Assembly: GCF_030684315.1 (NCBI RefSeq)
Contig: NC_081391.1
Coordinates: forward strand, 13,245,342-13,309,341
Direction of reading: 5' to 3'
DNA: 64,000 nt
Origin: Stegostoma tigrinum
Taxonomy: Eukaryota
Shown here: in pieces, positions 1 through 61,380 of the stretch
Layout of the letters: each line of letters starts with the position of its first letter
How positions within the stretch are numbered: position 1 is the first letter of the stretch
Notes under the pieces: model-generated
What the model was told of the DNA's origin: nothing
The model's input: only the letters and a program-made list of their open reading frames with translations
The model's database searches: none
Program-made: the position numbers and the translations under genes

Positions 1-655
1 ACCAGAGTTTGTTGGATCTACACCAACTCACCACAGCCCAGACTGACCCTCATGTAAGCGTCACCTCTTCATTCTCATCACTGCCATGCCTCTTCAACTT
101 CATTGGCTGGTCTTTGTGGAGTGAAAATTTGTAGATGTAACTTTGTCCAGATGCTACATTGTACCTTTGTCATCATAATTATGATGACAATGTTAAATTG
201 CTCAACACTGAACTGAAATAGGAATTTGGATTACCGTCTGGTGGGAATGCTGATGTGATTTTTGGCTGCTGAATTGGGGATTGTTGCACTATACAATACA
301 ACTTGGAGCTCTTTAAGAAGGTGAGATGGATCAGCTGAAGTGTCCTCACTGGCACAAATTCTCCAGGTGCTGGCTTGGTTTTTTTAGGACTGAGTGGGTA
401 TGGTGAAATGTTTTGCAGTGGGAATTCTGAAGTTGTCTTTAATAGTGATTGCAATTTCTCTCATGTTCTGTTGCAGCTGTGACTTCCTGGAGACTCACTA
501 TTTGGATGAGGAGGTGGAGATCATCAAGCAACTTGGGGATGGAGATCATCAAGCAACTTGGGGACTACATCACTGACCTGAAGCACCTGGGAGCCCCTGA
601 GAATGGGATGGGAGAGTACCTGTTTGACAGGCTCTCCCTGGAGGACAGCAGTTAG
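1..655 (+). pseudogene. Ferritin copy A (partial: end of exon 3 and exon 4), frameshifted pseudogene
   Basis: Exon 3 ends at 53 (..TDPH|gt). Exon 4 (477-655) starts CTGTGAC instead of CTGTGTGAC (2-bp deletion) and carries a 25-bp tandem duplication (tggagatcatcaagcaacttgggga), so the net frame is still shifted. AATAAA at 781-786. Confidence 0.88.
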
Positions 656-3655: not shown

Positions 3656-3843
3656 AGGTCAAAGGTCATTTCAGCAAAACCATCATCGACCAGTTGTCAA
3701 TTCTGATCGGTTTCTGGATCCAATTCCCATCCTGCACTGATTGGACGTGGCAACTGATCAATTGATTAACAAGAGTGATTGGCCATCACTGATGATGTCA
3801 TTTCCTGCTCAAAAAATGAGGGTCTTCTCCTGGAGTATAAATA
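3656..3843 (+). promoter_or_regulatory. Core promoter of ferritin copy B
   Basis: Perfect DR1 AGGTCAAAGGTCA 3656-3668, inverted CCAAT boxes (ATTGG 3740-3744 and 3778-3782), CRE-like TGATGTCA 3793-3800, ETS-like TTTCCTG, and TATAAATA 3836-3843 about 100 bp before the ATG. The block is conserved in all copies. Confidence 0.75.
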
Positions 3844-3938: not shown

Positions 3939-6900
3939 ATGGCCTCCCAGATCAATCAGAACTATCACCAGGATTGTGAAGCTGCTGTCAACAAGCAGAT
4001 TAATGTGGAGCTCACTGCCTCCTATCTCTATCAGTCTTTGGTGAGTGCTGTCCCTGTGGGGTTGGAGTTACTTCTGTTATGAAGTGAACTGTTTTTTTTA
4101 AAACAAACTAGATTAACACTCTTGTAGACTTGTTTGTTTTTTTTATTGTATGTCTTACCTATTTCTTGATTCAGGGTAAATGTGATGACAATGGGATATG
4201 ATACTGATATGTAGCAACTGAGGCCCCAGTTGGCTCAATGATATATGGAGGGTGAAGCATCTTGTGATTTATCTTACAATTCCTTTTAGGGCTGTGATTG
4301 CTTATAACTGGCTGTGGCTCTCCATAATTTTCTAAACTGCTGTCAAGTTTCAAGGATCAAGATAACCATTGGCTAACTACCTTTTTAAATCTGTCTTGAT
4401 GTATCTGCTTTAATTTTGTGCATGTAAATAAACAAACATACTGGTTTTGGTATTTACAATAAGGTGTTGTGGTAATTTGACAAATCAGATTTTTTTTAAG
4501 CTGAACTGAAGTCCTTGAGGTAAGACAAGCTGCTCCCTGCTTAAGTAGGTCTCCTATGTTTTGGCTTTCTGTACCCTATCGTGAGGTGGGTTTGATCCAT
4601 CACTGCACAACCTGTAGAAAGTTGATTTGTTATAGGTGCCTGCCCCCTGCCCCCCCTCACCCCCACCCCCAAAGGGGGCTGCTAGAACATGCTGAGGCTC
4701 TTGACCCAGAAATGAATGTTATTCCTTGACCTTTTATCCAGAAAAAACAAACTGGCTCCTCCCACCAGGTGGTGGTGCCCCTGTGCCCTTCCAAGGGGTA
4801 GAATGTGTCCAGAAGGTGTTGAGGTCCCCTTGGTGAGTGCTGCAGGGGACCTGGTAGATAATGGACCCTGAAAGGAGGTGGTGAATACAGTCCCCTTGAA
4901 GTGGGCTGCTCTGTCCTGGATGGTGTCTACTTCTTGCACGTTGCAGCTCCACTTCTCCAGACACATGGAGAATATTCATCTCTCTCTGGGCTTGTGCCTA
5001 TTGGAAGGAAGTCCTCTCTGGGCACATGAGGATCAAGTCCCTATAACTACCTTTTTGGGAGGTGGGAATAGCTTTAACTGGTGAACCAATTGTTGGGTTT
5101 TGGTCACTGACCACTGTCCAAACTCAATAGGGAATCTTGTGTGCTGATAATAAAATCCCCACTATTCTACAACTTAACTACCCAATTAAACCACTTTTTT
5201 AAACTTTTTGCTTGTATTTGAGGATTAAACTAACTTCTCACCTGGATTCTACCCAGGAACAACTTCTTCTTCTTTTGAAGTCAATAGACTATTCCTAATC
5301 AGCAATAACTTGTTGGATTGTGAATCTCAGTTGAAAAGTGAGTGGGGAAAACAATAGTTTAGCCTCTTGGAATAAGCTAAATTGAGCTCTCCAGCTTTGA
5401 ACAAGTCAATAATCTATAGGTCACACAGTCCTGCAGATACCATTAGGTCTCCTGAACATTGGATCTTGTTTCAGTTGTGTATTTTTTTAATGCTTTGCTT
5501 TGCAAGCTTCTGGCAACCTGAGTGCATGGCATAAACAAATGTGATAAACTATTGCTGCAACAAGCCAAAGGCTGTCACTGGGCAGGCTCTCCTTTAGCAC
5601 CAAGATTCTCCTAATCGCCTTCATTCTCCTGCATACTGCCACCAGCTGCTCTTGTAGAGCTGATTTTATGGTTAATAAAATACAGTACATCTGATCCAAT
5701 TGGTTGCAGAAGACCTGTACCTATTCGCTATATTAATGTCCAGCATCTGCATGTTACTCTAGCACCAGGGGAGACATGTAATGACTTGAAGTTACCTGAC
5801 CCTGTGCACATCCTGCATTCCAGCTCCTGGCACTTGTTTAAACCCTATTCAGTTCCCACTTCCATCCAATGCTGGAGGCTAGATGACAGAAATGTGCATT
5901 CAGCTCTTCTATCTAGGCTGTGCCAGACCCACACCCCCAAACAATTCAGCAGGGTTTACAAACCAGAACACTGAATTTGCATCTTACGTGGAAGATGCTG
6001 GGGTTGTTTGGTTTCCTCCAATTAAAGGAGCTGCTGGCTAATTTTGCAACACCATTAGTGAACATTGTAAGGTGTCAACAATTTTCAACTGATTGAATGA
6101 ATCATTAGTTTGCTTTAGACTGAACCAGTCCTCCAGTTCTGAGCATGAGAAATGGGGTCAATGATGTGTTTAATGGGCTTTAACTTTTGTTCTCCCTTCC
6201 AGATGTCCTACTTTGACCGGGATGATGTTGCCCTCGCCCATGTCTCCCGGTTCTTCAAAGATCAGTCCCAGGAGAAACAGGAACATGCAGAGAAGCTGCT
6301 GAAACTCCAGAATCAGCGTGGAGGCAGAGTCCTCCTCCAGGATGTGAAGGTTGGAGTTGGGGAGGGGGGTGCTGGTGTGGTGTGCAGGAATGGCAGCTCA
6401 TGGTGTTTTCTGTCACTAGTGACAAGATTTTCATGTTGTGAAGGTTGGATTTGGAGAAGGCAGGCAGTGGGGAGGAGATGTGAGAAATGGCTGCTTACGG
6501 TGTGGTTTCATGTCCTGAAAGAAAGTGAAAACTGTTTTGTTTGGCTCCCCTCCTTTTGACTAAAAGGAAAGAAATCCTAGAAACAAGCCTCTTGGCTCCC
6601 CTCCACCTGCTGCTTCCCCAACCCCACCCCACCCCATGCTGAGCCGACAAGCACCAAACCACATTAATCCCATTTACTGCACTTGGTCTACAGCCCCCAT
6701 GGCATTGGTAGTTGTCTAGAAGCTGCTTAAATATTGCAGCAGTAGATGCCTCCCACACTGCCCCCCCCCCCCCCCCCCCGTGTCCCTGCCCACTGCCCCC
6801 ACCCCATGCATTATTTTTCCACTACCCTCTCGGCAAAGGATTCCTCTAACCTGCTGACTCCTCACATCAGTGCCCTCTGGTCTTAATGTCTCTTTCTCCC

Positions 6901-8594
6901 CACCCCCTCATAGCAGACACTCCCCATCTACTATCAAGACTCCACACTAATCAAATGCCATCACATAAACATCTCAACTGACTTCACTCTGAGGATTGGA
7001 GTGAGAAATCTAATCTCTCCTTTTAATGGATTTTTCAGCCTTGGGGCAATGTCCTGGTGACCCCTTCCAGTGCCATTGTGGCTCTGGTCACCACACAGTA
7101 TTCCACCTTTGCATGGCCAATGCTGCAAAGTTTGTGACAAGACTGGAGTCCCTGTACTGCGCCCCAAGAAATGGGGAAGGGCATTGTGGAAGCCATCTTC
7201 CCCATCCTGTCTACACTTATGGATCCTTGAAATATCTCTAGTCTTGTTCTCTTGGTTCCTTTATTGTCAACATATTGCTGTCCCTTCAATGAATTAAATA
7301 GTAGTGATGCTTTTGATCATTCAGGTCAGTCCGAGATGAAGCCATAAGCACAAGTGGGACTTCAACCTGGGCCTATGCTCCAAACCTAGGGACAGTACCA
7401 CTGCATAACAAGCCCTGGGATTAAGTTGTGAATATCCTCCTTGGGATGCCATCAGATGGGCACTGACAATTCTGTGCAAACATAACTCTTATCCCCACTA
7501 TGACCTGGTCGTGAATTGACTCTCCTTTCGGAAGAAGCAAATAGGGCTAAGTGAAAGAAATGTTAAATAACTGATCTGTTCTTCCATAGGGCTTCAGGGA
7601 TGGCAGTGGTTAGCACAACTGCATCAGTGCTTGGGGCACAAGCTTAATTCTGGAGTTGACATGTTCACCACATCTCTACATCGGCTTCCTCCCACAGTCC
7701 AAAGATGTGCAGGGTAGGATAGGGCATGAAAAATGCAGGATTACATGGCTGGGGCTAGGACCAGGTTGGATGCTCTTCAGATGGTCATGAGTGGGCAGAA
7801 TGGCCTGATGCATGCTGCAGGGATTTTGTTTCTGAGGCTTACCTGTCCTTCTTTGCATCCTCAGAAGCCAGAGAGGGATGAGTGGGGTAACAGTCTGCAG
7901 GCAATGCAGGTTGCCCTGGATCTGGAGAAGAATGTGAACCAGAGTTTGCTGCATCTACACCAACTCTCCACAGCCCAGACTGACCCTCATGTAAGCTTCA
8001 TCTCCTCCTCATTCTCATCTCTGCGAGACCCTCAGGGTAACACTTCATTGGTTGGTCTGTGTGGATTGGAAATTCACAGGTGTGCACTGATCACTTTGGG
8101 TCCATGCTGCTGAGCAGTTGTTACATGGTGATCAGTAATGAAGTGAAATGGGAGATTGGGAGTGATGAAGTGATATTGGCCACTGAATTCCCATTCTCAC
8201 TTGGGAGCATTACAGTGGAATGATCATTGTCCATCACCATCCAACTCAGCTCCACTTCACAAACAGCAAGATGGAGCAGCTGAAATCCTATTGTCCTCAC
8301 TGGCACAGATTTTCCAGGTGTTAGCTAAATTTTCAGGGCTGTATGGAACTAGTATGGTAAAGCCTGTTTTTCAGTGGGAATTCTGAAATTGTCTTGGATA
8401 GTGTTAATGCACCCAGTTGTCATATTCCTCTGTTACAGCTGTGTGACTTCCTGGAGACTCACTATTTGGATGAGGAGGTGGAGATCATCAAGCAACTCGG
8501 GGACTACATCACCAACCTGAAGCGCCTGGGAGCTCCTGAGAATGGGATGGGAGAGTACCTGTTTGACAGGCTCTCCCTGGAGGACAGCAGTTAG
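3939..8594 (+). CDS. Ferritin subunit (L/M-like, 176 aa), copy B, intact 4-exon gene
   Basis: Exons 3939-4040, 6203-6349, 7865-7990 and 8439-8594, all GT-AG. Protein [45 protein letters not shown]...[22 protein letters not shown]...[18 protein letters not shown]...[13 protein letters not shown] has the ferritin signatures and vertebrate intron positions. AATAAA at 8724-8729. Confidence 0.95.
4760..5090 (-). mobile_element. Old LINE (CR1/L2-like) ORF2 fragment in intron 1
   Basis: Minus translation [12 protein letters not shown] resembles a LINE ORF2 C-terminal segment. Orthologous copies are in D (~22080-22370), G (~48235-48560) and H (~58320-58620). Confidence 0.45.
7597..7815 (+). mobile_element. 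tRNA-derived SINE (HE1-like) in intron 2 of copy B
   Basis: gggatggcagtggttagcac... head and the V-domain-like ggcttcctcccacagtccaaagatgtgcagg. It sits at the same position in all copies. Confidence 0.6.
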
Positions 8595-11500
8595 TGTGGC
8601 CTGGAGCACTGTCTGCTTGGTCTGAATGCATTCCCCACTTCACCCTGGACAACCTGTCTCCTTCCAAGGAGAAGGGACTTGTGTAGCAAAGAATGTAATA
8701 GCTGTACCAGCTAAATGGAAATGAATAAAATTATGTATTGATCTTGCTTATTGTCCATCATTCAGAGCTCTGAATACTTTGGGTGATAGCTCTTGCTTGA
8801 AGCCAGTTCTCTTCTGTAATTTGATTGGTCTAATTGGACTGGGCAACCCTTCACGGAATCACTCACTATCCCCACATTAGAATGTAACTAGATGGAGTGT
8901 TTTTTTGGTTATTCCTGTGGAAATTGAAGGTGCTTCTCCTCCAAATAGGATAAGGTTGGGATTTGTCAATTGTGGCATTGGCTTTCTTCTAGAGGACAAT
9001 TAGTGCGCTTCTGGATATGGTGGGTTCAACTGTAGCTCAAAGCAATTGTCTTCCTCTGGTGCCAGGAAGCTCCCACACCGTCCAAAGAGACTTCTCTACC
9101 CAGCCTGATAGAATTTGGGATAGTGGTGTTCAATTGCACATTTCCCTTGAAATCTCTTCCCCGCCTCAGCCATCCTGCGTACTCAATTATTGCCTGAATG
9201 ATGACAGCAACAAAAAGTGAAGACAGCCCTTTATCTACTGACCCAGCTGCCTGATCACCAAGGTCTAAAGGAAGAGGCCCAGCAGGCTCTGATTTCAATC
9301 CAGCTGGCGGAAGCAGCAGAGCTGTGAAACAATCTCGATGGCCTGGTATATCTCTTTTTTTTTTCCCCATTGGGCCCTACCCTGACCAAAACACACTATA
9401 TTCTCAGTATTGTTACTTTTTGGTTTCACCATCCCAAACTGTGGCTGGAGCTCCTTCTCTTCCGCCTCTTCCCCGCTTCTCTTTCCCCCCGCCCGCAACC
9501 CAACCTCTTCTTTCTTTTCTTTCCACGTGCCCCCAGCAGCCTTAACCTTCACCACAGCCCCTTCCCCTGGGAGTCAGCTCAAGACATTCACCTGAACTGG
9601 ACTGGATTATCATGTAGAGCCTCATTGCCGCTTACAGCAGGATAACAGGGACCTGGGAATAACACAGCAATGCACCTGGTTAAATGCTGCTGTTTGATTG
9701 GCTCTTGTTGCTAAAGCCAGCATTGAGCGCACTAAGCTGCTCCCTTGGTGAACATTATTCCTGATGCAGGTTGATTGGGTGAAATCACATTGAAGGAGCA
9801 AAGTGGCTCGGAGAGGAGACATGGAGATGCTGACTTTCCTTTACGGCTGCTTCTTTTATCTTTCAAGGTGTCAGAGATCATGGGTTCGTGAGGGGGCTAT
9901 CAGAGACATCCTGAGGATTGTTCCAGGGAGTTTTGTAGCGAGTGCACACTGCAGCCTTCATAGAGGTTGGCGGGGGGGGAGGGGTTGCTGCAGAGTCAAA
10001 AGGCACTCAACATATTTGTTCCACCACATAAAGCAATTTATTTTCGGTGAATAAGTCTGGGCTACAGTAACCCTCAAGTGCAGGAAGGGACCATTAGGCC
10101 CATTAAATCTGCATCGACCTTCTGAACAGCATCCTCTTTAGACCCAACCCCTTTGCCTTAACTCCACATTTCCCACGGCGAATCGACCTAGTCTGCAGGC
10201 CCCTGCTCACGATCGACAATCTGCAAATCATTGGGCTGTGTGAGGAAACTCAAGCACCTGGAGGTAATCCACGCAGGCCATCACCCATGGGTAGAATCGA
10301 ACCTGGGTCCCTGGCACTGAGGCGCCAAAGCATTCTAAAGTACCAAAGGAAAGGAATACACTGCGGCAAACTACATCATGGGAATAGACTCTGCAGCCCA
10401 GCCCGAACTTGCAGACCAGGTTTTCATAAACTGTGTAGTGCCATTTGCCTACATTTGGCCCATCTTTCTCTAAACCGTTCCTTTCCATGTAAATCTCCAA
10501 ATGTCACTTAAATGTTGTAATTCTATCCACCTCTACCACTTCCTCTAGCAGCTCGTTCCACACACGCACCACACTATGTGTGAAAATGTTGTCACTCACG
10601 CCCCTTTTAAATCTTGCCCCTCTCCCCTCAAACCAATGCCCTCTAGTTTTGGACCCCCCCTACCCTGTCCCAGCATGCTTTTTATATACAGTCAATCTTG
10701 AGTGTGCCAATGGCAAGGCTACATTTAGTGCTCAGCAACTCTTACACTTCAGGAGGTGGTAATGAGCTGCGTATTACAGTCCACCTGGTGTCGGAGAGAC
10801 CGGAATGATGCTGCTGCTGTTGCTGAGGAGGGGCTTCTGGGATTTTCATTCACAAACAGGGATATTGTTCCAAGTCAGGATGGTGACAGAGTTACATGGA
10901 GCTGCTTGAGTGTCGTTGGTGCTGCCTCCAGCGAGAACATTGTAAACTATTCCAGCACTACTCCCAATTTCAGCCTTATTGAGGGTGGGCAGGTTTTGGA
11001 AACTCAGGAGTTGAGTACTTCCTGACAGAATTCCCAGCATCTGAATTCCCAGTTTCTGAGCTGTACCATCTACAGAACGCAATGTAAACAGGACCAGAAA
11101 TTGCTCACTTGGAAACATGCTGGGGTTAATCGCTAGTTCTACTTCAACCAACGAAAAACGAAACTGGGAGACAGAAATGTTCAACGTGCGATACATTTCT
11201 AGCAGCAACTGAGACATAGAGGCCTGAGGCCTACTGTGTAGAAGAGGCACTCAGCACATTTAGCGTTTTGCTTTTCAAACTGGGCCTTCAAGGTCAAGGT
11301 CAGGGAGATCAAATCAGATGCAGATTGGATCCACAAAGTACATCAGTTGCCTGTTTTAGACGATCCAAAAGCACATTATTTCTGTTGCTGCACAGAAATA
11401 GGAAAATGTTCAGATCAACCAAATCGAGCCATTTTTCAAAGAGCTCCAACACCAACGTTCAAAAATTATGACGACTAATCCCTCAGAATAGCAATCCGAC

Positions 11501-11900: not shown

Positions 11901-14900
11901 ATGGCCTCCCAGATCAGTCAGAACTATCACCAGGATTGTGAAGCTGCTGTCAACAAGCAGATCAATGTGGAGCTCACTGCCTCCTATCTCTATCAGTCTT
12001 TGGTGAGTGGTGTCTCTGTTGGGTGAAACATACTTCTGTTCTGTTGAAGTAACCTCTTCCCCTTGGATGTAATTAAGTTGTCTATCTTCTAGACTGAGTT
12101 TTGTGGCTCCTACCTCTTTCTCAATGCAGGATGAGTGTGATGTTACTGTAACAATAGTTTGGTGTCTAATGTTACTCTAACTTGGGTCCCAGTTGGTTGT
12201 CAGTGAGATGTGGAGGGTGGAGTGTTCTTGTAGTTACTTGCCTGTCCCATGATGGTGCTGTGACTGGTGGTAATTATCGCTTCCTGTGACTGTTTGTTTG
12301 AAACTTGAGGGAACAAAATTAAAAATGAATTGGGACTCACCATTGTGGGAACGGAAGCACCATCAGCTAGTCACTGCTTTTCTTTTCCCTCTTGTGTCCT
12401 TGTTTCTATTTGAATCTTGTGGGGATCTGAAGTAAACCTGCCAATTGATACTGAGAATCTTGGTTTCCTATTGCAATCAGCTTAGAATAGGCTTGTTCTA
12501 GCCCTACAGAGCGGGGCCGAGAGGTGGCAAATGGAGTTTAATGCAGCTAAGTGTGAGGTGATGCACTTTGGTAGGAGTAACTGGAAGGCTAAGTACAGCG
12601 CTAAGGGTAAGATTCTTGGTGGTGTAGATGAGCAGAGAGATCTGTTGATAGATAGACATGGATTGTTGAAAGTTGCCACCCAGGTTGACAGGGCAATTAA
12701 GGTAGTGTTTTGTTTTCTATTAATAGAAGACTGAGTTCTGGAACCAAGAGGTTATGGTGAAGCTGTACAAAACTCTGGTGCAGCTGCACTTGGAGTATTG
12801 CGTACAGTTCTGGTCACTGCATTATAAGGATGTGAAGCTTTGGAAAGGGTGTAGAGGAGATCTGCTAGGATGTTGCCTGGTATGGAGGGAAGATCTTATG
12901 AGGAAAGGCTGAGGGACTTGAGGCTCTCTTCATTAGAGAGAAGAAGGTTGAGAGGTGACTTAATTGAAAGATATAAAATAATCAGAGAGGGCTAGTTAGG
13001 GTGGATAGGGAGAGCCTTTTTCCTAGATGGTGATGGTGAGCATGAGGTGGGGTAGCTTTAAATTGAGGGCTGATAAATATAGGACAGATGTCAGAGGTAG
13101 TTTCTTTATTCAGTAAGGGAATGTAATGCTTTGCCTGTGACAGTAGTAGATTTGCCCACTTTAGGTACACTTAAGTCATCATTGGATAAGCAAATGGGCG
13201 TACATGGAATAGTGTAGGTTAGATGGGCTTGAGATCAGTATGACAAGTCGGCACAACATCAAGGGCTGAAGGGCCTGCACTTGGCTGTTATGTTCTATGC
13301 TCAGATTAAACTGGGTGAGGTTGTGACTCTTATCTGATTAAGCAGATCTCCATTTGAAATCTACCTTGCTTTTCTTCATACTCATGAGGTGGGTGTGGGC
13401 TGTCTGTATGTCAAGTGTTGGAGCTTTTCAAAGGCACAGCACTGCCATGGGGCTGAGAATGTACTGACCCAGTGACTCTGGTAAAAAGTTTATGCCCGTT
13501 GTATTTGGCCTGATTCTAAACTAACTGGCCCCTCTTTCCCCAGATGGGGTGCTTGTGCCCTTCCAAGGGGTAGAATGTGTTTAGAAGGTGTTTACGTAAC
13601 CTTAGTGTTTGTTGCAGGGTGCTCTCTGGGCTTGTCCCTGTCAGCAGGAAGTCCCCTCCTGATGAGGATCAAGCCCCTGTCAGCCCCACTTTGGGAGGGG
13701 GAACAGCTTTCATTGAGCCAGCAGTTGGGTTTTAATCACTGACCCATTGTCCCAACACACCTTGTAAGCATGTGCCAGGAATGAAATCCTTACTATTCTA
13801 CATCTTCTAACTGCACATTTAAATCGCAAAGATAAATTGTGCTTGTGTGTGCATTTGAGAATTGAAGCAACTTTTTTCAGCAGGATTTGTAAGAATGTGC
13901 TTGTTACTGGCTGCTTCCAATAGCAGACCCGTTAAACCTCAATACACTGAATTGTGAACATCCTGGTTTAGAAATCTACAGGACTTTGCCTGTTGGATTA
14001 AGTCAACAGTGGTTTTTCCAGGTTAATGAGGGATCTTGTCTGGAGAGTAGTTGATCTGCAGATCACTGTCATATTTGTCATGTGATCAGTTTGTTTTGTC
14101 AGTCTTTCTTTCATGTGTAATGGTACAAGTTGCTAGCAGTCTGAGTCAGTGCAGCTGTTTTAGATGCAGCAGTAAACTGTTGCAGTAACAATCCAAAGGC
14201 TGTCCTTAGGCAGGCTTTCCTTGGCAGATTCTTGGAGCTAACGTCCTTCATTCATCTCCTCATGCACCCGCAGGCACCCCTATACTGCAGTTCTTGTCAA
14301 ACTAATAGATACAGTGCATCCAATTGCATTGATCCTGACTAAGCAGAAAATGTGCTTCTTCCTAGCTGTTAATTGCAGTGTCTAGGATCTGTTTTCTGGT
14401 CTTTGCCAAAGCAGCAATACAGTGCCCTGCAGCTGTTCTATTGGTGTACATCCTGTGCTCCAGCCCCTGGCACTTCTTGAAACCCTGTTCAATCAAAGTT
14501 TTATCCCATTTCTGGTGGAGGTTAATCAGTAAAAACATCAATTCACACTTGTTCTCACCAAATGCTGTGCCAGACCCTCCTGGGCAAGTTGCCAGGAGTT
14601 TCAAACCAAAATAAAACACATGGTGTTTACAGCTTACCTGGAGGAAGCTGAGATTGTTTTGATTTTTCCAATTCAACAGCAACTGCTCCAAACTGGGTTC
14701 TGAATTGTTAATGCATCAGGTACTTAACAGCTTATTGTCAGTTTGATTTTGAGAATGCTCAAGTAGCCCTGTAGTTCTGAACTGAAATTGGACCATGACG
14801 TGTTAATGGACTTTACCGTGTTCTCCCTTCCAAATGTCCTACTTTGACCGGGATGATGTTGCCCTTCCCCATTTTTCCCAGTTCTTCAAACATCAGTCTC

Positions 14901-17096
14901 ACGAGAAGCGGGAACATGCAGAGAAGCTGTTGAAATTCCAGAATCAGCGTGGAGGCAGAGTCCTCCTCCAAGATGTGAAGGTTGGAGTTGGGTGGGGTGG
15001 GGAATGGGATGGTAATGGCTGCTCTTGTGGTGTGGTTTCAAGTCAGTGACAAGGTTTTCATTTGAGTCAAAACTTTGTTCAGCCTGATTGATCTCCTTTT
15101 TGAAGCCAGTGTGGAAAGAAGCCCTTTGGCCCACCATGTCTATGCTGACCCCACAAACACTAAACAACATTAATCCCACTTAGCTGCCCTTGGTCCACAG
15201 GCCACTGTCCTGGCACTAAGTACTTGTCCAGCTGGACCCTAAACTGATCTTGAGTCGCAGTTTCCACCACCATCCAACCCTTTATGTGGTTCATCTCATA
15301 TATTTCAAACAGCCCCTCAGAGGGGTGGGGGGTGGGGTCAAGTTTCCTCCAATCCCCTCTAACCTGCTTACTCCTCAAACCTGGTTTCTCTCCGGTGTTG
15401 GTGTCTGCCATGGGGAAGACATTCCATCAACTGGCCACTCTCTATTCTTCAATAGTTACATCAGGTCGCTCCCTCAGCCTTTCCTGCTCCTCAAAACCCC
15501 AGCCTACCTAACATCCAATCAATGGCTCTTGGGGAACCTCACCAGCATCCCCCCTGCATTGCCATCCTGTCCTTGTGACTGGTTAGGCCAAAGAGGCAAT
15601 GTGGTGACCAGAAAAACAAACTGAGGAGACTGGTCCCCTTCCTGTTCCACCCCCACCAAACTAATAGAGGTTGCTTGCCCTCTGTCACTGTTACACCCTG
15701 TTGACCTTGTCTGAACTTTGAGGGATCTATGGTTGTGGGCCTTTCTTAACTGTTAGCAGCACAACACACTTTGCAAACACCTCGCTGTCCCTTGGATGAA
15801 TTAAATAGCCGTGATGTTTCTGATCATCCTGCTCAGGCATGTATGAAGCCACCAGCACAAGTGGTACTTGAACCTTGGCCTTGTCAGCCAGAGACAGGGG
15901 CACTACCACTGTACCATGACAGCATTTAGGATTCACTCGTGAATATCCTCGCAATTCCATCAGATGGACCCTGATGCAAATCTTGTCATTATCCCCCACA
16001 ATGACCTGTTATTCAACTTCCTCCTTCAGATCAAGGACCGACAGGCAAGGTGAAAGCAATTCGAAGGAACTGTTCTTCAGCTGTGCTCCAGGGCTGCCTC
16101 AGGGGCTAGCAGTGTTCTCAGTGCTAGGGACACAGGTCTGGATCTGGCCTCTGGTGAGGGACTGGTGTTTACATGTCCTCCCCATGTCTGCATTGGTGTC
16201 CTCATAGGATAAGGGGATTGGCCATCTGAAATGCAGGGTTACAGGAATAGGGTGGGAGAATGACGAGTTGGGATCCTCTTCAGAGCAGTTACAGACTGAT
16301 CCACGTTGTAAAGATTCTGAAGCTTAACTGTCCAACTTTCCTTCCTCCAGAAGCCAGAGAGGGATGAGTGGGGTAACAGCCTGCAGGCAATGCAGGTTGC
16401 CCTGGATCTGGAGAAGAATGTGAACCAGAGTTTGTTGGATCTACACCAAGTCGCCACAGCCCAGACTGACCCTCATGTAAGCTTCACCTCCTCATTGACT
16501 TCACTGCTAGGCCCTCAGGGCAACACGTTCATTGGTTGGTCTTTTGTGGATTAGAAATTCAGTTAGACTTTGTTTTTGTGCAGATGACATGGATCACTTC
16601 AGATCCATAGTGATTACAAAATCATTGCTGAGCAGTTGAGTCCAAGTGTGTATTTTAACCTGTAAACCTGTGGGGAGGACTGAGGTGATATTGGTCACTG
16701 AATTCTCATTCAGGACCACTGCAGTGGAATGACTTTTATCCATCACAAGTTAACTCTGCTCCAGTAAATAAACAGCAAGATGAAACTGCTAAAAAGCAGT
16801 TGTCCTCTTTGCACAATTTCTCCAGGCGTTGGCTCGAGACATCCCTGACCATCTCCCTCCATATGCATGTTTTTCAGTGGGAATTCTGAAGTTGTCTTGG
16901 ATAGTGTTAATGTACCAAGTGTCATATTCCTCTGTTGCAGCTGTGTGACTTCCTGGAGACCGACTATTTGGATGAGGAGGTGAGGATCATCAAGCAACTC
17001 GGGGACGACATCACCAACCTGAAGCGCCTGGGAGCCCCTGAGAATGGGATGGGAGAGTACCTGTTTGACAGGCTCTCCCTGGAGGACAGCAGTTAG
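11901..17096 (+). pseudogene. Ferritin copy C, open exons but intron-1 acceptor mutated (probable pseudogene)
   Basis: Exons 11901-12002, 14834-14980, 16351-16476 and 16941-17096. The acceptor before exon 2 is ttcCAA|atg instead of CAG. Exon 4 has non-conservative changes (ETDY, VRII, GDDI). AATAAA at 17220-17225. Confidence 0.75.
12504..13299 (+). mobile_element. 5'-truncated CR1 LINE in intron 1 of copy C
   Basis: Translation [17 protein letters not shown]... is typical of CR1 ORF2, with a 3' tail ending in tgttctatg. Confidence 0.9.
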
Positions 17097-29356: not shown

Positions 29357-32300
29357 ATGGCATCCCAGATCATGCAGAACTATCACCAGGATTGTGAAGC
29401 TGCTGTCAACAAGCAGATTAATGTGGAGCTCACTGCCTCCTATCTCTATCAGTCTTTGGTGAGTGGAGTCTCTGTTGGGTGAAACATACTTCTGTTCTGT
29501 TGAAGTGAACTCTACCCCTTGGATGTAATTAAGTTGTCTATCTTATAGACTGAGTTTTGTGGCTCCTACCTCTTTCTCAATGCAGGATGAGTGTGATGTT
29601 ACTGTAACAATAGTTTGGTGTCCAATGTTACTCTAACTTGGGTCCCAGTTGGTTGTCAGTGAGATGTGGAGTGTTCTTGTAGTTACTTGCCTGTCCCATG
29701 ATGGTGCTGTGACTGGTGGTAATTATAGCTTCCTGTGGCTGTTTGAAACTTGAGGGAACTAATTTAAAAATGAATTGGGACTAACCATTGTGGGAATGGA
29801 AGCACCATCAGCTAGTCACTGCTCTTCTTTTCCTTCTTGTATCCTTGCTTGTATTTGAATTTTGTGGTGATCCCAACTTAACATCTCAAATAATCTTGAG
29901 AATCTTGATTTCCTATTGCAATCAGCTTAGAATAGGCTTGTTCTAGCCCTACAGAGCTGGGCTGAGAGGTGGCAAATGGAGTTTAATGCAGACAAGTGTG
30001 AGGTGATGCACTTTGGTAGGAGTAACCGGAAGGCAAAGCACGAGGCTAATGGTAAGATTCTTAGTAATGTAGATGAGCAGAGAGATCTCGGTGTCCACGT
30101 AAACAGGTCCTTGAAAGTTGCCATCCAGGTTGACAGGGCGGTTAAGAAGGCAGTGTTTTCTCTTTGATTAATAGAGGCATTGAGTTCTGGAACCAAGAGG
30201 TTATGGTGAAGCTGTACCAAACTCTGGTGTGGCTGCACTTGTAGTATTGTATACAGTTCTGGTCACTGCATTATAAGGATGTGGAAGCTTTGGCAAGAGT
30301 GCAGAGGAGGTTTACTAGGATGTTGCCTGGTATCGAGGGAAGCTCTTATGAGGGAAGACTGAGGGACTTGAGGCTGTCTTCATTGGTGAGAAGGTTGAGA
30401 GTTGACTTAATTGAAACATATAATATTCTGAGGGTTGGAAAGGGAAATCCTCTTTCTGCGGACGGTGAGCATGAGGGGGCATAGCTGTAAATTGAGGGAT
30501 GATAGATATAGGACAGATGTCTGAGGTAGTTTCTTTACTCAGTAGTAAGGGAATGGAATGCTTTGCCTGTGACGGTAGTAGATTTGCCAACTTTAGGTAC
30601 ATTTAAGTCGTCATTGGACAAGCATATGGACGTACAGGGAATAGTCTAGGTTAGATGGGCTTGAGATCAGTATGACAAGTTGACACAACATCTAGGGCCT
30701 GTACTGTGCTGTTATGTTCTAGTTTCAGATTAAACTGGGTGAGGTTGTGACTGGTATCTGATCAAGCAGATCTCCATTTGAGATCTACTTTGCTTTTTTT
30801 CATACTCATGAGGTGGGTGTGGGCTGTCTGTATATGAAGTGTTGGAGCTTTTCCAAGGCACGGCACTGCCGTGGGGCTGAGAATGTGCGGAGGGTACTGA
30901 CCCAGTGAATATGGAAAAAATAGCTTATTCCTGTTGTATTTGGCCTGACTCTAACTAGCCCCTCTTTCCCCAGGTGGTTGGGTGCCTGTGCCCTTCCAAG
31001 GGGTAGAATGTGTTTAGAAGGTGTTAGAAGTAACCTTAGTGAGTGTTGCCGGGTGCTCTCTGGGCTTGTGCTTGTCAGCAGGAAGTCCTGTCATGATGAG
31101 GATCAAGTCCCTGTCAGCCCCACTTTGGGAGGTGGCAACAGCTTTCATTGAGCCACCAGTTCAGTTTTAATCGCTGACCCATGTTCCTAACACAACTTGG
31201 AAGCATGTCCCAAGAGTAAAATCTCCACTATTCTACATCTTCTAACTGCCCATTTAAATGGGCAATGATAAATTGTGCTTGTGTTTGCATTTGACAATTA
31301 AAGCAACTTTTTTCAGCAGGATTCCCAAGAATGTGTGTCTTAGTAGCTGCTTCCAATAGCAGACCTGGTAAACCTGAATACATTGAATTGTGAACATCCT
31401 GGTTTAGAAATCTACAGGACTTTGCCTGTTGGATTAAGTCAACAGTAGCATTTCCACGTTACTGTTTTAATAAGTGATGTTGTCTAGAGAGTAGGTGATC
31501 TGCAGGTCACTGTCATATTTGTCATGTGATCAGTTTGTTTTGTCAATCATTGTTTCATGTGTAATGGTACAAGTTGCTAGCAGTCTCAGTACAGCTGTTT
31601 TAGTTGCAGCAGTAAACTGTATCTAGAACAATCCAAAGACTGTCCCGAGGCAGGCTTTCCTTGGCAGATTCTTGGTGCCCATGTCCTTCATTCATCCCTT
31701 CCCCCTCACCCCAGCCACCCCACTACTGCAGCCCTTGTCAACCTAATACAGTGCATCCAATTGCATTGATCCTGACTAAGCAGAAAATGTGCTCCTTCCT
31801 AGCTGTTAGTTGCAGTGATGGGATCTGTTTTCTGGCCTTTGCCAAAGGAGCAATAGCGTGCCCTGCAGCTGTTCTATTGGTGCACATCCTGCATTCCAGC
31901 TTCTGGCATTTCTTGAAACCCTATTCAATCAGTAATTTATCCCATTTCTGGTGGAGGTTAATCAGTAAAAACATCAATTCACACTTGTTCTCACCCAATG
32001 CTGTGCCAGACCCACTGAGCAATTTGCCAGGAGTTTCAAACCAAAATAAAACACATGGTGTTTACAGCTTACCTGGAGGAAGCTGGGATTGTTTTGATTT
32101 TTCCAATTCAACAGGAACTGCTCAAAACTGGGTTCTGAATTGTTAATGCATCAGGTACTTAACAGCTTATTGTCAGTCTGATTTTTAGAATGCTCAAGTA
32201 GCCCTGGAGCTCTGAACTAAAATTGGCCCGTGACTTGTTAATGGGCTTTACCTTGATCTCCCTTCCAGATGTCCTACTTTGACCGGGATGATGTTGCCCT

Positions 32301-34530
32301 CCCCCATGTCTCCCGCTTCTTCAAACATCAGTCCCAGGAGAAGCGGGAACATGCAGAGAAGCTGCTGAAATTCCAGAATCAGCGTGGAGGCCGGGTCCTC
32401 CTCCAGGATGTGAAGGTTGGAGTTGGGTGGGGTGGGGGTTGGGATGGTAATGGCTGCTCTTGTGGTGTGGTTTCAAGTCAGTGACAAGATTTTCATTTGA
32501 GTCAAAACTTTGTTCGGCCTGTTTGATCTCCTTTTTGAAGCCAGTGTAGAAAGAAGCCCTTTGGCCCACCATGTCTTTGCTGACCCCCCCAAACACTAAA
32601 GCACATTAATCCCATTTATCTTCCCTTGGTCCACAGGCCACTGTCCTGGCACTATGTACTTGTCCAGCTGGACCTTAAACTGATCTGGAGTAGCTGACTC
32701 CACCACCATCCAACCCTTTATGTGGTTCATCTCATATTTCTAACCTCCCCCTCGGAGGAGGGTGAAGAGAACGTTTCCTCCAATCCCCTCTAACCTGCTT
32801 ACTCCACAAACCTGGTTTCTCTCTGGTCTTGCTGTCTGCCATGGGGAAGACATTCCATCAACTGGCCACTCTCTATTCTTCAATAGTTACATCAGGTCAC
32901 TCCCTCAGCCGTTCCTGCTCCACAGAAAATCCCAGCCTATCTAACCTCCAATCAATGGATCTTGGGCAACAGCCTGGGGAACCTCACCAGCTTCCCCCTG
33001 CAGTGCCATCCTGTCCTTGTGACTGGTGAGGCCAAAGAGGGAATAATGTGGTGACTAGAAGAACAAACTGTGACAAGACTGGCCCCCTTCCTGTTCCACC
33101 ACACCCAACTAATAGAGGTTGCTTGCCCTCTGTCACTGTTACACCCTGTTGACCTTGTCTGAACTTTGAGGGATCTATGGTTTTGGGCCTTTCTTAACTG
33201 TTAGCAGCACAACACACTTTGCAAACACCTCGCTGTCCCTTGGATGAATTAAATAGCCGTGATGTTTCTGATCATCCTGCTCAGGCATGTATGAAGCCAC
33301 CAGCACAAGTGGTACTTGAACCTTGGCCTTGTCAGCCAGAGACAGGGGCACTACCACTGTACCATGACAGCATTTAGGATTCACTCGTGAATATCCTCGC
33401 AATTCCATCAGATGGACCCTGATGCAAATCTTGTCATTATCCCCCACAATGACCTGTTATTCAACTTCCTCCTTCAGATCAAGGACCGACAGGCAAGGTG
33501 AAAGCAATTCTGAAGGAACTGTTCTTCAGCTGTGCTCCAGGGCTCCCTCAGGGGCTAGCAGTGTTCTCAGTGCTAGGGACGCAGGTTTTGATCTGGCCTC
33601 TGGTGAGGGACTGGTGTTTACATGTCCTCCCCATGTCTGCGTTGGTGTCCTCATAGTATAAGAGGATTGGCCATCTGAAATGCAGGGTTACAGGAATAGA
33701 GGGGGAGTGGGATGAGCTGGGATGCATTTCAGAGCAGTTCTGCACTGATCGATGTTGTAGAGATTCTGAAGCTTCACTTTCCTTCTTTCCATCCTCAGAA
33801 GCCAGAGAGGGATGAGTGGGGTAACAGCCTGCAGGCGATGCAGGTTGCCCTGGATCTGGAGAAGAATGTGAACCAGAGTTTGCTGGATCTTCACCAACTT
33901 GCCACAGCCCAGACTGACCCTCATGTAAGCTTCACCACTTCATTCTCTTCACTGCTGGTCACTCAGGGCAACACCTTCAATGGTTGGTCTTTTGTGGATT
34001 AGAAGTTGCCTGCTGTCTCAGACAAGTACCATTTGGATCTCTTCAGATCTGTACCAATGCTTATAATCTGATCAGCTCAGCAATCAAGTAAAATGGGAAT
34101 TTGGATTATAATCTAGTAGGAGTGATGAAGTGATATTGGCCACTGAATGCTCATCCAGGATTATTGCAGTGGAATGATCACTATCCATCATAATCCAACA
34201 CAGCATCACTTAACAAACTGCAAGAGCAGTTGAAATACATGGTCCTCACTGGCATAGTCTCCAGGTGTTAGGTTTTCAGGGTAGTCTCGAGCTCATATGG
34301 CTGAGTGTTTTGCAGTAGGAAATCTGAGGTTGTCTTGGATAGCATTAATGTAGCAAGTTGTCATATTCTTGCAGCTGTGTGACTTCCTGGAGACTCACTA
34401 TTTGGATGAGGAGGTGGAGATCATCAAGCAACTCGGGGACTACATCACCAACCTGAAGCGCCTGGGAGCCCCTGAGAATGGGATGGGAGAGTACCTGTTT
34501 GACAGGCTCTCCCTGGAGGACAGCAGTTAG
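29357..34530 (+). CDS. Ferritin subunit (L/M-like, 176 aa), copy E, intact 4-exon gene
   Basis: Exons 29357-29458, 32269-32415, 33799-33924 and 34375-34530, GT-AG and with no stops. An extra in-frame ATG lies at 29354. AATAAA at 34660-34665. Confidence 0.93.
29949..30721 (+). mobile_element. 5'-truncated CR1 LINE in intron 1 of copy E
   Basis: [17 protein letters not shown] and [12 protein letters not shown] translations. Same insertion site as in C and F. Confidence 0.9.
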
Positions 34531-37853: not shown

Positions 37854-40800
37854 ATGGCCTCCAAGATCAGTCAGAACTATCACCAGGATTGTGAAGCTGC
37901 TGTCAACAAGCAGATTAATGTGGAGCTCACTGCCTCCTATCTCTATCAGTCTTTGGTGAGTGGTGTCTCTGTTGGGTGAAACATACTTCTGTTCTGTTGA
38001 AGTGAACTCTTCCCCTTGGATGTAATTAAGTTGTCTATCTTATAGACTGAGTTTTGCGGCTCCTACCTCTTTCTCAATGCAGGATGAGTGTGATGTTATT
38101 ATAACAATAGTTTGGTGCCGAATGTTACTCTAACTTGGGTCCCAGTTGGTTGTCAGTGAGATGTGGAGGGTGGAGTGTTCTTGTAGTTACTTGCCTGTCC
38201 CATGATGGTGCTGTGACTGGTGGTAATTATAGCTTCCTGTGGCTGTTTGAAACTTGAGGGAACTAATTTAAAAATGAATTGGGACTCACCATTGTGGGAA
38301 TGGAAGCACCATCAGCTAGTCACTGCTTTTCTTTTCCCTCTTGTATCCTTGTTTCTATTTGAATTTTGTGGGGATCTGAAGTAAACCTGCCAATTGTGAC
38401 TGAGAATCTTGATTTCCTATTGCAATCAGCTTAGAATAGGCTTGTTCTAGCCCTACAGAGCTGGGCCGAGAGGTGGCAAATGGAGTTTAATGCAGGCAAG
38501 TGTGAGGTGATGCTCTTTGGTAGGAGTAACCGGAAGGCAAAGTACAGGGCTAATGGTAAGATTCTTGGTAGTGTAGATGAGCAGAGAGATCTGTGTCGAT
38601 AGGTAGACACGGAATGTTGAAAGTTGCCACCCAGGTTGACAGGGCAATTAAGGCAGTGTTTTGTCTTTTATTAAGAGGATTGAGTTCTGGAACCAAGAGG
38701 TTATGGTGAAGCTGTACAAAACTCTGGTGCATACAGTTCTGGTCACTGCATTATAAGGATGTGAAGCTTTGGAAAGGGTGTAGAGGAGATCTGCTAGGAT
38801 GTTGCCTGGTATGGAGGGAAGATCTTATGAGGAAAGGCTGAGGGGCTTGAGGCTCTCTTCATTAGAGAGAAGAAGGTTGAGAGGTGACTTAATTGAAACA
38901 ATAAAATAATCAGAGGGCTGGATAGAGAGAGCCTTTTTCCTAGATGGTGATGGTGAGCATGAGGTGGGGTAGCTTTAAATTGAGGGCTGATAAATATAGG
39001 ACAGATGTCAGAGGTAGTTTCTTTACTCAATAAGGGAATGCAATACTTTACCTGTGATAGTAGTAGATTTGCCCACTTTAGGTACACTTAAGTCATCATT
39101 GGATAAGCAAATGGGCATACATGGAATAGTGTAGGTTAGATGGGCTTGAGATCAGTATGACAAGTCGGCACAACATCAAGGGCTGAAGGGCCTGCACTTT
39201 GCTGTTATGTTCTATGTTCAGATTAAACTGGGTGAGGTTGTGACTCTTATCTGATTAAGCAGATCTCCTTTTGAGATCTACCTTGCTTTTCTTCATACTC
39301 ATGAGGTGGGTGTGGGCTGTCTGTATGTCAAGTGTTGGAGCTTTTCAAAGGCACAGCACTGCCATGGGGCTGAGAATGTACTGAGGGTACTGACCCAGTG
39401 ACTCTGGTAAAAAGTTTATGCCTGTTGTATTTGGCCTGATTCTAAACTAACTGGACCCTCTTTCCCCAGGTGGGGTGCTTGTGCCCTTCCAAGGGGTAGA
39501 AGGTGTTTATGTAACCTTAGTGTTTGTTGCAGGGTGCTCTCTGGGCTTGTCCCTGTCAGCAGGAAGTCCCCTCCTGATGAGGATCAAGCCCCTGTCAGCC
39601 CCACTTCGGGAGGGGGAACAGCTTTCATTGAGCCAGCAGTTGGGTTTTAATCACTGACCCATTGTCCCAACACACCTTGTAAGCATGTGCCAGGAATGAA
39701 ATCCTTACTATTCTACATCTTCTAACTGCACATTTAAATCGCAAAGATAAATTGTGCTTGTGTGTGCATTTGAGAATTGAAGCAACTTTTTTCAGCAGGA
39801 TTTGTAAGAATGTGCTTGTTACTGGCTGCTTCCAATAGCAGACCTGCTAAACCTCAATACATTGAATTGTGAACATTCTGGTTTAGAAATCTACAGGACT
39901 TTGCCTGTTGGATTAAGTCAACAGTGGTTTTTCCAGGTTAATGAGGGATCTTGTCTGGAGAGTAGTTGATCTGCAGATCACTGTCATACTTGTCATGTGA
40001 TCAGTTTGTTTTGTCAGTCTTTCTTTCATGTGTAATGGTACAAGTTGCTAGCAGTCTGAGTCAGTGCAGCTGTTTTAGATGCAGCAACAAACTGTTGCAG
40101 TAACAATCCAAAGGCTGTCCTTCGGCAGGTTTTCCTTGGCAGATTCTTGGAGCTAACGTCCTTCATTCATCTCCTCATGCCCCCCCCCCCCCAGCCACCC
40201 CAATACTGCAGTTCTTGTCAAACTAATAGATACAGTGCATCCAATTGCATTGATCCTGACTCAGCAGAAAATGTGCTTCTTCCTAGCTGTTAATTGCAGT
40301 GTCTAGGATCTGTTTTCTGGTCTTTGCCAAAGCAGCAATACAGTGCCCTGCAGCTGTTCTATTGGTGTACATCCTGCACTCCAGCCCCTGGCATTTCTTG
40401 AAACCCTATTCAATCAAAGATTTATCCCATTTCTGGTGGAGGTTAATCAGTAAAAACATCAATTCACACTTGTTCTCACCAAATGCTGTGCCAGACCCTC
40501 CTGGGCAATTTGCCAGGAGTTTCAAACCAAAATAAAACACATGGTATTTACAACTTACTGGAGGAAGCTGGGATTGTTTTGATTTTTCCAATTCAACAGC
40601 AATTGCTCAAAACTGGGTTCTGAATTGTTAATGCATCAGGTACTTAACAGCTTATTGTCAGTTTGATTTTGAGAATGCTCAAGTAGCCCTGTAGTTCTGA
40701 ACTGAAATTGGCCCATGACTTGTTAATGGACATTACCTTGTTCTCCCTTCCAGATGTCCTACTTTGACCGGGACGATGTTGCCCTTCCCCATTTTTCCCA

Positions 40801-43026
40801 GTTCTTCAAACATCAGTCTCAGGAGAAGCGGGAACATGCAGAGAAGCTGCTGAAATTCCAGAATCAGCGTGGAGGCGGAGTCTTCCTCCAGGATGTGAAG
40901 GTTGGAGTTGGGTGGGGTGGGGAATGGGATGGTAATGGCTGCTCTTATGGTGTGGTTTCAAGTCAGTGACAAGGTTTTCATTTGAGTCAAAACTTTGTCC
41001 AGCCTGTTTGATCTCCTTTTTGAAGCCAGTGTGGAAAGAAGCCCTTTGGCCCACCATGCCTATGCTGACCCCACAAACACTAACAACATTAATCCCACTT
41101 ACCTGCCCTTGGTCCACAGGCCACTGTCCTGGCACTAAGTACTTGTCCAGCTGGACCCGAAACTGATCTTGAGTCGCAGTCTCCACCACCATCCAACCCT
41201 TTATGTGGTTCATCTCATATTTCAAACAGCCCCTCAGAGGGGTGGGGGTGGGGTGAAGTTTCCTCCAATCCCCTCTAACCTGCTTACTCCACAAACCTGG
41301 TTTCTCTCCTGTCTTGGTGTCTGCCATGGGGAAGACATTCCATCAACTGGCCACTCTCTATTCTTCAATTACATCAGGTCACTCCCTCAGCCGTTCCTGC
41401 TCCACAGAAAATCCCAGCCTATCTAACCTCCAATCAATGGATCTTGGGCAACAGCCTGGGGAACCTCACCAGCTTCCCCCTGCAGTGCCATCCTGTCCAG
41501 GTGACTGGTGAGGCCAAAGAGGAATAATGTGGTGACCAGAAAAACAAACTGAGAAGACTGGTCCCCTTCCTGTTCCACCCCCACCAAACTAATAGAGGTT
41601 GCTTGCCCTCTGTCACTGTTACACCCTGTTGACCTTGTCTGAACTTTGAGGGATCTATGGTTGTGGGCCTTTCTTAACTGTTAGCAGCACAACACACTTT
41701 GCAAACACCTCGCTGTCCCTTGGATGAATTAAATAGCCGTGATGTTTCTGATCATCCTGCTCAGGCATGTATGAAGCCACCAGCACAAGTGGTACTTGAA
41801 CCTTGGCCTTGTCAGCCAGAGACAGGGGCACTACCACTGTACCATGACAGCATTTAGGATTCACTTGTGAATATCCTCGCAATTCCATCAGATGGACCCT
41901 GATGCAAATCTTGTCATTATCCCCCACAATGACCTGTTATTCACCTTCCTCCTTCAGATCAAGGACCGACAGGCAAGGTGAAAGCAATTCTGAAGGAACT
42001 GTTCTTCAGCTGTGCTCCAGGGCTGCCTCAGGGGCTAGCAGTGTTCTCAGTGCTAGGGACGCAGGTCTGGATCTGGCCTCTGGTGAGGGACTGGTGTTGA
42101 CATGTCCTCCCCATGTCTGCGTTGGTGTCCTCATAGTATAAGAGGATTGGCCATCTGAAATGCAGGGTTACAGGAATAGGGTGGGAGAAGGACGAGTTGG
42201 GATCCTCTTCAGAGCAGTTACAGACTGATCCACGTTGTAGAGATTCTGAAGCTTAACTGTCCTTCTTTTCCCTCCTCCAGAAGCCAGAGAGGGATGAGTG
42301 GGGTAACAGCCTGCAGGCAATGCAGGTTGCCCTGGATCTGGAGAAGAATGTGAACCAGAGTTTGTTGGATCTACACCAAGTCGCCACAGCCCAGACTGAC
42401 CCTCATGTAAGCTTCACCTCCTCATTGACTTCACTGCTAGGCCCTCAGGGCAACACCTTCATTGGTTGGTCTTTTGTGGATTAGAAATTCAGTTAGACTT
42501 TGTTTTTGTGCAGATGACATGGATCACTTCAGATCCATAGTGATTACAAAATCATTGCTGAGCAGTTGACTCCAAGTATGTATTTTAACTTGTAAACCTG
42601 TGGGGAGGACTGAGGCGATATTGGTGACTGAATTCTCATTCAGGGCCACTGCAGTGGAATGACTTTTATCCATCACAAGTCAACTCTGCTCCAGTAAATA
42701 AACAGCAAGATGAAGCAGCTAAAAAGCAGTTGTCCTCTTTGCACAATTTCTCCAGGCGTTGGCTCTAGTCATCCCTGACAATCTCCCTCCATATGCATGT
42801 TTTTCAGTGGGGATTCTGACGTTTTCTTGGATAGTGTTAATGTACCAAGTGTCATATTCCTCTGTTGCAGCTGTGTGACTTCCTGGAGACCCACTATTTG
42901 GATGAGGAGGTGAGGATCATCAAGCAACTTGGGGACTACATCACCAACCTGAAGCGCCTGGGAGCCCCTGAGAATGGGATGGGAGAGTACCTGTTTGACA
43001 GGCTCTCCCTGGAGGACAGCAGTTAG
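37854..43026 (+). CDS. Ferritin subunit (L/M-like, 176 aa), copy F, intact 4-exon gene
   Basis: Exons 37854-37955, 40754-40900, 42281-42406 and 42871-43026, GT-AG and with no stops. Variants are MASK, GGGVFL and VRII. AATAAA at 43153-43158. Confidence 0.92.
38453..39219 (+). mobile_element. 5'-truncated CR1 LINE in intron 1 of copy F
   Basis: Paralog of 12504-13299, ending in tgttctatgtt. Confidence 0.9.
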
Positions 43027-60375: not shown

Positions 60376-60948
60376 TCTTCCACACAACTACATGTGGCAC
60401 TCCAACTCCTGGCATTTCCTTTAAACCCTGTTCAGTCACGAACTTCATCCAATTCTGATGGTGCTTAGAGTGGATATGTTCTTCTCTCTACAGACAAGAA
60501 CAGGCCTGGTCAATTCACAGGTTTTTGTAAAGGAATTTTAAAAAATAGGGTATTTGCCTGGTTACCAGGAGGAGGCGAGGGTTGTTTTTGATGATTCTTG
60601 AACTGGAGCCACTGGCTAACTGGACAATGGTTCTCCTCCAACTTGATGTATCTAATATTTATTGACTTCTCAATTTGAAGGTGAAACCAGTCATGTCTGG
60701 CACCAATTGTATGATGTTTAATGGATGTAACTTGTTTTCTCCCAGGTGTCGTACTTTGACCAGGATGATGTTGCTCTCCCCCATGTCTCCCGGTTCTTCA
60801 AAGATCAGTCCCAGGTGAAGCAGGAACGTGCAGAGAAGCTGCTGAAATTCCAGAATCAGCGTGGAGGCCAAGTCTTCCTCCAGGATGTGAAGTTTGGAGT
60901 TCGGTTTTTGGGGTGGGGGGAGTTGGGTGGTAGAGTGGCTGCTCCTCA

Positions 60949-61267: not shown

Positions 61268-61380
61268 CAGAGATTGTGAAGCTTACCTGTCCTCTCTCCA
61301 TCCGCAGAAGCCAGAGAGGGATGAGTGGGGTAACAGCCTGCAGGCAATGCAGGTTGCCCTGGATTTGGAGAAGAATGTGA

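Follow-up and report, generated by a model that had tools for sequence, protein, structure and literature searches.

A tandem array of ferritin genes in the zebra shark with light-chain-like changes at the ferroxidase centre

Genes in the window

The window, the whole 64-kb stretch of zebra shark (Stegostoma tigrinum) DNA analysed here, holds eight units of a tandem ferritin array, all on the + strand; four are intact (B, E, F, and G) and four are damaged, an intact unit being one with an ATG and GT-AG splice sites and without stop or frameshift. An earlier sequence-only reading had placed the gene of copy B at 6203..8594, a span that misses exon 1; the gene begins at 3939. The features are as follows.

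1..655, + strand, copy A (exon 3 end and exon 4), a frameshifted pseudogene
3832..3842, + strand, copy B TATA box; the stretch of promoter up to this point shares homology with the promoters of a second ferritin array (see below), and there is no iron-responsive element (IRE) up to the ATG
3939..4040, + strand, copy B exon 1 (E27 codon 4008-4010, Y34 codon 4029-4031)
6203..6349, + strand, copy B exon 2 (K62 codon 6275-6277, H65 codon 6284-6286)
7865..7990, + strand, copy B exon 3 (E107 codon 7925-7927)
8439..8594, + strand, copy B exon 4 (E141 codon 8475-8477, I144 codon 8484-8486, stop 8592-8594)
8724..8729, + strand, copy B poly(A) signal
11901..17096, + strand, copy C; frame open, but the exon-2 acceptor is AA
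21556..25699, + strand, copy D, a pseudogene with stops, H65P, and an altered exon-4 acceptor
29357..34530, + strand, copy E, intact; its three introns are bridged by contigs of run X7
37854..43026, + strand, copy F, intact
47469..51631, + strand, copy G, intact
57507..62021, + strand, copy H, a pseudogene with no ATG, broken donor and acceptor, and H65R

The ferritin array and the other ferritin genes of the genome

Beyond the window, the array comprises 170 four-exon units spanning 1.417 Mb (contig C50, scanned throughout from 12.945 to 14.409 Mb), with a median spacing of 8.5 kb and with all four exons present in 164 units. Strictly intact units number 94, encoding 72 distinct proteins; in 18 of the 76 others a GC donor is the sole defect. 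Across 85 distinct intact coding sequences pN/pS is 0.26, and the array subunit is under purifying selection, the array being a working gene family. An array made up of pseudogenes alone is ruled out by the 94 intact units and this ratio. Among named proteins the closest is P0010, a zebra shark ferritin with 100% identity to copy E exon 2; those of other carpet sharks come next. When the genome was searched with exon 2, all of the 150 candidates scored out of 443 fell on C50, the array accounting for 138 and a second cluster for 12.

An H-matching gene lies on C20, tail to tail with a bestrophin match, an arrangement that we take to be the neighbourhood of human FTH1; the array has neither this adjacency nor a place in the H clade. 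C50 also carries a single M-like gene at 21.61 Mb and a second ferritin array at about 19.95-21.56 Mb, with further copies on C216. In those stretches read that fall in the second array (14 of 20), E62 is found in 20/20 and Q141 in 25/25 sampled exons; first-look candidate counts of 418-443, which are unscored, suggest over 200 copies. All non-H ferritins of this genome lie on the chromosome of C50.

Residues at the ferroxidase centre

The 176-aa array chain can be aligned to frog M ferritin and to pig H with no gap, so that residue 59 corresponds to the H-chain ligand E62 and residue 138 to Q141 (offset to human H entries). The sequence-only reading had noticed a Lys in exon 2 and a Glu in exon 4 of copy B and had concluded that the centre is broken in the L-chain manner in every copy. 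Both residues are borne out (codon 6275-6277 is AAA, residue 59 and H-position 62; codon 8475-8477 is GAG, residue 138 and H-position 141), and the caveat that the Lys might occupy a non-ligand position falls away on alignment to frog M, pig H, and the human H offset. The L-style pair K62 and E141 extends array-wide: in the window K62 occurs in 7/7 exon-2 copies and E141 in 8/8 exon-4 copies, and in the whole array the counts are 168/169 (the remaining copy gapped) and 165/167 (the remaining two gapped), with no active residue at 62 or 141 among the readable copies of the 170 units. A further change, absent from that reading, is I144, found in 167/167 array copies where frog M has Asp.

The remaining ligands, which had been described as kept, are indeed so for E27 (167/167) and E107 (166/167) and mostly for Y34 (159/167); H65 is retained in 150/169 copies and is Pro or Arg in two broken copies of the window. 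It is His in 90/94 intact as against 60/75 broken copies, a better retention that counts against reading the centre as dead. The full set E27, Y34, E61, H65, E107, and E140 is present in 85 of the 94 intact copies. The three-fold channel residues are likewise kept (D131 in 165/167 and E134 in 166/167).

Acids of the L-type nucleation set had been reported as partly present, with D/H at position 57 and Q/H at position 60. The former stands (D in 112 and H in 54 of 169 exon-2 copies), while position 60 is nearly always Gln (152/169), with His in 2/169. Position 61 is E in 145/169 and position 64 in 168/169, and the cavity set 57/60/61/64 is incomplete in the array. Several short words of sequence had also been offered as marks of an L chain; EAAVN, DEWG, RLG, and GEYLF are found in frog M as well, and the second array of the same shark, with E62 and Q141, has TDPH and GEYLFDRL, so that most such words appear general to non-H chains, M-type included.

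Array copies are close to one another, with 99 of 176 residue columns invariant across the intact copies, and residue fixation in one genome is therefore weak evidence by itself, being partly the product of recent amplification. Stronger evidence comes from conservation of K62 in related proteins of four shark orders, namely those of Heptranchias, Mustelus, Cetorhinus, Carcharodon, Chiloscyllium, Hemiscyllium, and Rhincodon. An origin of K62 as a frame or assembly artefact was rejected on finding the same residue in these named proteins of other sharks.

Comparison with known ferritins

The best PDB match to the array chain is frog M (1mfr and variants), collinear over 176 aa, which keeps E58, Q137, and D140 where the array reads K, E, and I. 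Identity of the array chain to H- and M-type rows is 68-73%, compared to 59-64% for mammalian FTL. The chain and gene features of a vertebrate 24-mer ferritin are present (four-helix bundle with a short helix E, about 175 aa, and four exons), and an AlphaFold model of the subunit has the ferritin helix pattern, with a mean pLDDT of 88.3.

The array departs from the H/M active set (E27, E62, H65, E107, and Q141) in having K62 and E141, and carries the FTL set K62, E107, and E141. Light chains of coelacanth, amphibians, reptiles, and mammals carry K62, and nearly all carry E141. Mammalian FTL shares K62, E107, E141, and a hydrophobic residue 144 with the array but differs in its non-Glu residue at 27, G65, F137, and E57/E60; it is also controlled through an IRE. 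Three features of amniote L chains are wanting in the array: loss of E27 and H65 (both are kept), the cavity acids, and the 5′ IRE. On the present evidence, membership of the array in FTL is unproven.

Outside sharks, the exact combination E27/Y34/K62/H65/E107/E141 occurs in 2 of 477 proteins compared, the amphibian oocyte light chains of Xenopus tropicalis (P0417) and Mantella (P0416), which tells against the idea, put forward in the earlier reading, of a special intermediate state. The Xenopus protein also shares I144 and is 64% identical to the array chain, without gaps. These oocyte chains nonetheless fall within the sarcopterygian L clade, apart from the shark clade, have E57 and K61, and, by their names, seem to exist in few copies, unlike the shark array.

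FTHL17 of eutherians and marsupial proteins called ‘FTHL17’ also have K62 with other ligands kept. FTHL17 is reported to be expressed in germ cells and to form a multi-gene family in mouse (PMC7760355). As an FTH1-derived, X-linked mammalian gene, described as FTH1-like, it is distinct from the four-exon shark array, which belongs to a non-H clade; the marsupial group keeps Q141 and lies in the M clade. K62 together with H65 and Q141 recurs in that marsupial group, in an H-like protein of marmot, and in a Heptranchias protein of the second-array type.

In the Greenland shark, 155 FTL and 179 FTH1 copies are reported, in clusters syntenic with those of the white shark (10.1101/2024.09.09.611499). 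These Greenland and white shark clusters are, like the array, ancient tandem expansions, and a link of their ‘FTL’ copies to the K62 type is putative. The main text of 10.1101/2024.09.09.611499 contains neither ‘ferroxidase’ nor ‘iron’.

Promoter, iron control, and expression

Rfam detects an IRE in the H gene and in the single M-like gene, and none in the window or in four second-array stretches. A hairpin pattern that found both of these controls found no IRE in 167 array 5′ ends or in four second-array 5′ ends; the array thus lacks the 5′ IRE of L chains. The promoter of copy B resembles those of the second array (z exceeds 4 for 5 of 10, with a best value of 12.7) and not those of the H and M-like genes (z -0.1 and -0.4), and the four array promoters tested reach a z of at most 1.7 against either of the latter. 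An IRE-less promoter is common to the K62 array and the second array. Because the comparison of promoters and IREs took in shark genes and no L gene of amphibians or coelacanth, this promoter could be older than the split. The 3′ UTRs of the two arrays have no clear similarity (z 1.1 and 2.0).

At copy E, contigs of run X7 bridge the three GT..AG introns from exon to exon (a single run of unrecorded type and tissue, with paralogues pooled), and one contig of run X3 does so at two of them. Run X8 covers introns as well as exons, and run X1 gives mostly repeat matches; none of the 11 sequencing runs is recorded as RNA. In the Greenland shark, the largest ferritin cluster is reported to be ovary-specific (10.1101/2024.09.09.611499). 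The array likely serves iron storage in eggs. That ovary expression belongs to the Greenland shark and does not distinguish between subunit types.

Phylogeny and origin

A quick tree of 78 rows did not settle the deep node; 37 of these rows went into the later trees, which were rooted on H and excluded long branches and invertebrates. Three groups are firm: the shark K62 proteins (99-100%), the L chains of sarcopterygians (97-100%), and a group of the second-array type that includes a chimaera protein (97-99%). The phylogeny proposed in the sequence-only reading gives an affinity to L on all columns (71/80 for a union of the shark K62 clade with sarcopterygian L, with union with the second array not rejected by AU, p 0.43), but not once site columns are removed. 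With nine site columns dropped, the shark K62 clade is sister to the second array (92/89; AU for union with L, p 0.42), and so it is when columns 62 and 141 alone are dropped under a mixture model (91/86; union with L not rejected, p 0.25). Bootstrap for this node is 91-92% without the site columns, and the node is unstarred. The pull to L vanishes without columns 62 and 141, as convergence predicts. The promoter common to both arrays points the same way.

Within the K62 clade, Q141 is found in the Heptranchias, Mustelus, Cetorhinus, and Carcharodon proteins, and E141 only in the carpet sharks Stegostoma, Chiloscyllium, and Hemiscyllium; I144 is likewise confined to carpet sharks. By these sequences the change was stepwise, K62 coming first and shark-wide and E141 later in carpet sharks. 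Because E141 and I144 are so confined, E141 would most simply be a second, independent gain even were K62 inherited. The earlier reading had framed the origin as a choice between an FTL lineage and convergence, which was the right choice to pose; the evidence leans to convergence, and the K62 array is probably L-like by that route, apart from tetrapod FTL.

The competing view makes the array the true orthologue of FTL in sharks, with a single origin of K62 in early jawed vertebrates, so that the array would represent an early L state with a function that is still L-like. K62 is present in every one of the 10 L and 6 shark rows in the tree set, and five non-site columns are exclusive to the two groups, as against four shared by the shark clade and the second array alone. 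The best all-column tree also speaks for orthology, as do the failure of AU ever to reject union with L and the site residues identical in Xenopus P0417. C50 further has RUVBL, SNRNP70, GFO/IDH, and Bcl-2 family matches, which we take to be neighbours of human FTL. The array is, however, flanked most closely by Sec7- and Frag1/DRAM-family genes, which lie 4 to 12 Mb away from those markers (the flank scan took in 129 open frames out of 330 and 94 out of 389), and the same chromosome carries the other ferritin genes. Glycogen_syn matches lie on C20 and C33 (a stricter first look). Orthology is also opposed by the loss of tree support on removal of columns 62 and 141, by the restriction of E141 to carpet sharks, by the lack of any ray or chimaera member among the top matches listed (477 proteins), and by the promoter that the array has in common with the second array. 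We consider it unlikely.

Proposed role of the array subunit

E27, E62, and H65 form the ferroxidase centre, and E62K/H65G is reported to abolish H-chain activity (PMC6929972). The array subunit had been described as catalytically weak. It is more likely that the centre is dead, because in FTHL17, where most other ligands are kept, E62K is by itself said to be sufficient to abolish activity (review, PMC7760355).

In L chains, a salt bridge is assigned to K62 and E107. Lys62, in place of the iron-bridging Glu62, would likely leave the array subunit without ferroxidase activity: it may fill the metal site and pair with Glu107 (perhaps Glu141), blocking di-iron binding and stabilising the bundle. 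Mixed 24-mers would likely form, probably in the ovary, with the intact subunits of the second array, whose genes lie on the same chromosome, the active partners oxidising Fe(II) and the K62 subunit supplying shell and, via E61/E64 and D57, part of a nucleation surface. The incomplete cavity acids (57 D/H and 60 Q) weaken the proposed nucleation role. Without an IRE, output would be set by promoter and copy number, independently of cell iron. That the array subunit works like an L chain seems to us quite probable from its residues; for the whole of the reading, a ferroxidase-dead, L-like partner in mixed 24-mers, likely ovarian and arisen in sharks apart from FTL, our preference is slight.

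Two other functions deserve weighing against this ferroxidase-dead partner. The centre might be rewired and not dead, Glu141 together with Glu107, Glu140, and Glu61 replacing the lost ligand and allowing slow or single-site oxidation. Such a centre would suit the 85 of 94 intact copies that keep E27, Y34, E61, H65, E107, and E140, the carboxylate that E141 adds at site B, and the rarer loss of H65 among intact copies; yet a Lys at the bridging position is reported to abolish FTHL17 activity with other ligands kept (PMC7760355), mammalian L likewise has E107, E140, and E141, and non-carpet sharks have K62 without E141, which together make rewiring improbable. More improbable still is a germ-cell or yolk protein produced in bulk, with only a small part in iron handling, FTHL17-like and amplified by birth and death. 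The 76 of 170 units that are not strictly intact (18 by GC donor alone), the lack of an IRE, the incomplete cavity acids, and the FTHL17 precedent would fit such a protein, but it is at odds with the purifying selection, the conserved channel residues D131 and E134 (165/167 and 166/167), and the promoter common to the active second array.

In the literature searched, with subscription journals outside coverage, we found no account of a ferroxidase-dead shark ferritin. Catalytically dead ferritin subunits, the residue set, and the amplification of ferritin genes in sharks are each already known separately; what appears to be new is their connection and the stepwise path. Tentatively, and with rather less assurance than for the subunit itself, we propose that sharks have their own two-subunit egg ferritin, made from active and dead arrays that have one IRE-free promoter type and well over a hundred copies each, in which carpet sharks retraced the L path (K62, then E141 and a hydrophobic 144), a path that would be repeatable and could be rebuilt from living species. 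If this is true, jawed vertebrates came at least twice, through the same substitutions, to a division of labour between active and inactive ferritin subunits, and the steps survive in living sharks (K62 only compared to K62 with E141 and I144), so that why an enzyme-dead subunit persists becomes testable with natural proteins. Much of the reported shark ferritin expansion would then be catalytically dead and outside iron control, despite its heavy and middle annotation.

Teleost M has been called orthologous to mammalian L (PMC4117605). In our trees, coelacanth, amphibians, and reptiles hold both M and L types, which makes the relation between teleost M and mammalian L less simple than proposed there.

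Array architecture and sequence variation

Within the ferritin array (zebra shark genome G000, contig C50, 12.99-14.40 Mb), pairs of identical coding sequences most commonly lie 127 kb (10 pairs) or 172 kb (4 pairs) apart. This recurrence is a higher-order repeat, whose source is either a very recent block duplication or the assembly of a repetitive region. When the array exons are compared, pN and pS both peak in exon 2, and the intact copies vary frequently in that exon at the cavity-side positions 53 (R/Q), 57 (D/H), and 63 (R/Q).

At least two ATTGG boxes occur in 126 of the 167 array promoters (5′ ends, including window 3650-3842), and an E-box motif in 111 of the same set; these may resemble the Y-box and E-box elements of oocyte promoters. 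Intron 1 of copy E, an intact unit of the window (29357..34530, + strand), contains a high-copy repeat at window 29950-30780, with coverage from all four sequencing runs. At both array edges are long segments open in several frames (L033:8544-10000, L034:1-8540, and L191:996-2380); these yielded no Pfam matches and are likely minisatellites.

Ferritins outside the array

Marsupial proteins named FTHL17 (P0218 and P0353-P0362) combine K62 with Q141 and are placed within the M clade; theirs is apparently a further independent loss. The “lower subunit” ferritins of chimaera and salmonid (P0259 and P0237) have centres degraded in different ways; their branches are long and their tree position is unsure. 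In pairs of an M-type and an L-type protein from one reptile species (P0038/P0395, P0050/P0401, and P0440/P0393), the contigs of both proteins are equal-sized, which hints at linkage of the two genes. Elsewhere in G000, stop-containing ferritin matches on contigs C11, C5, C2, C43, C13, and C17 continue through exon borders, and are likely processed pseudogenes.
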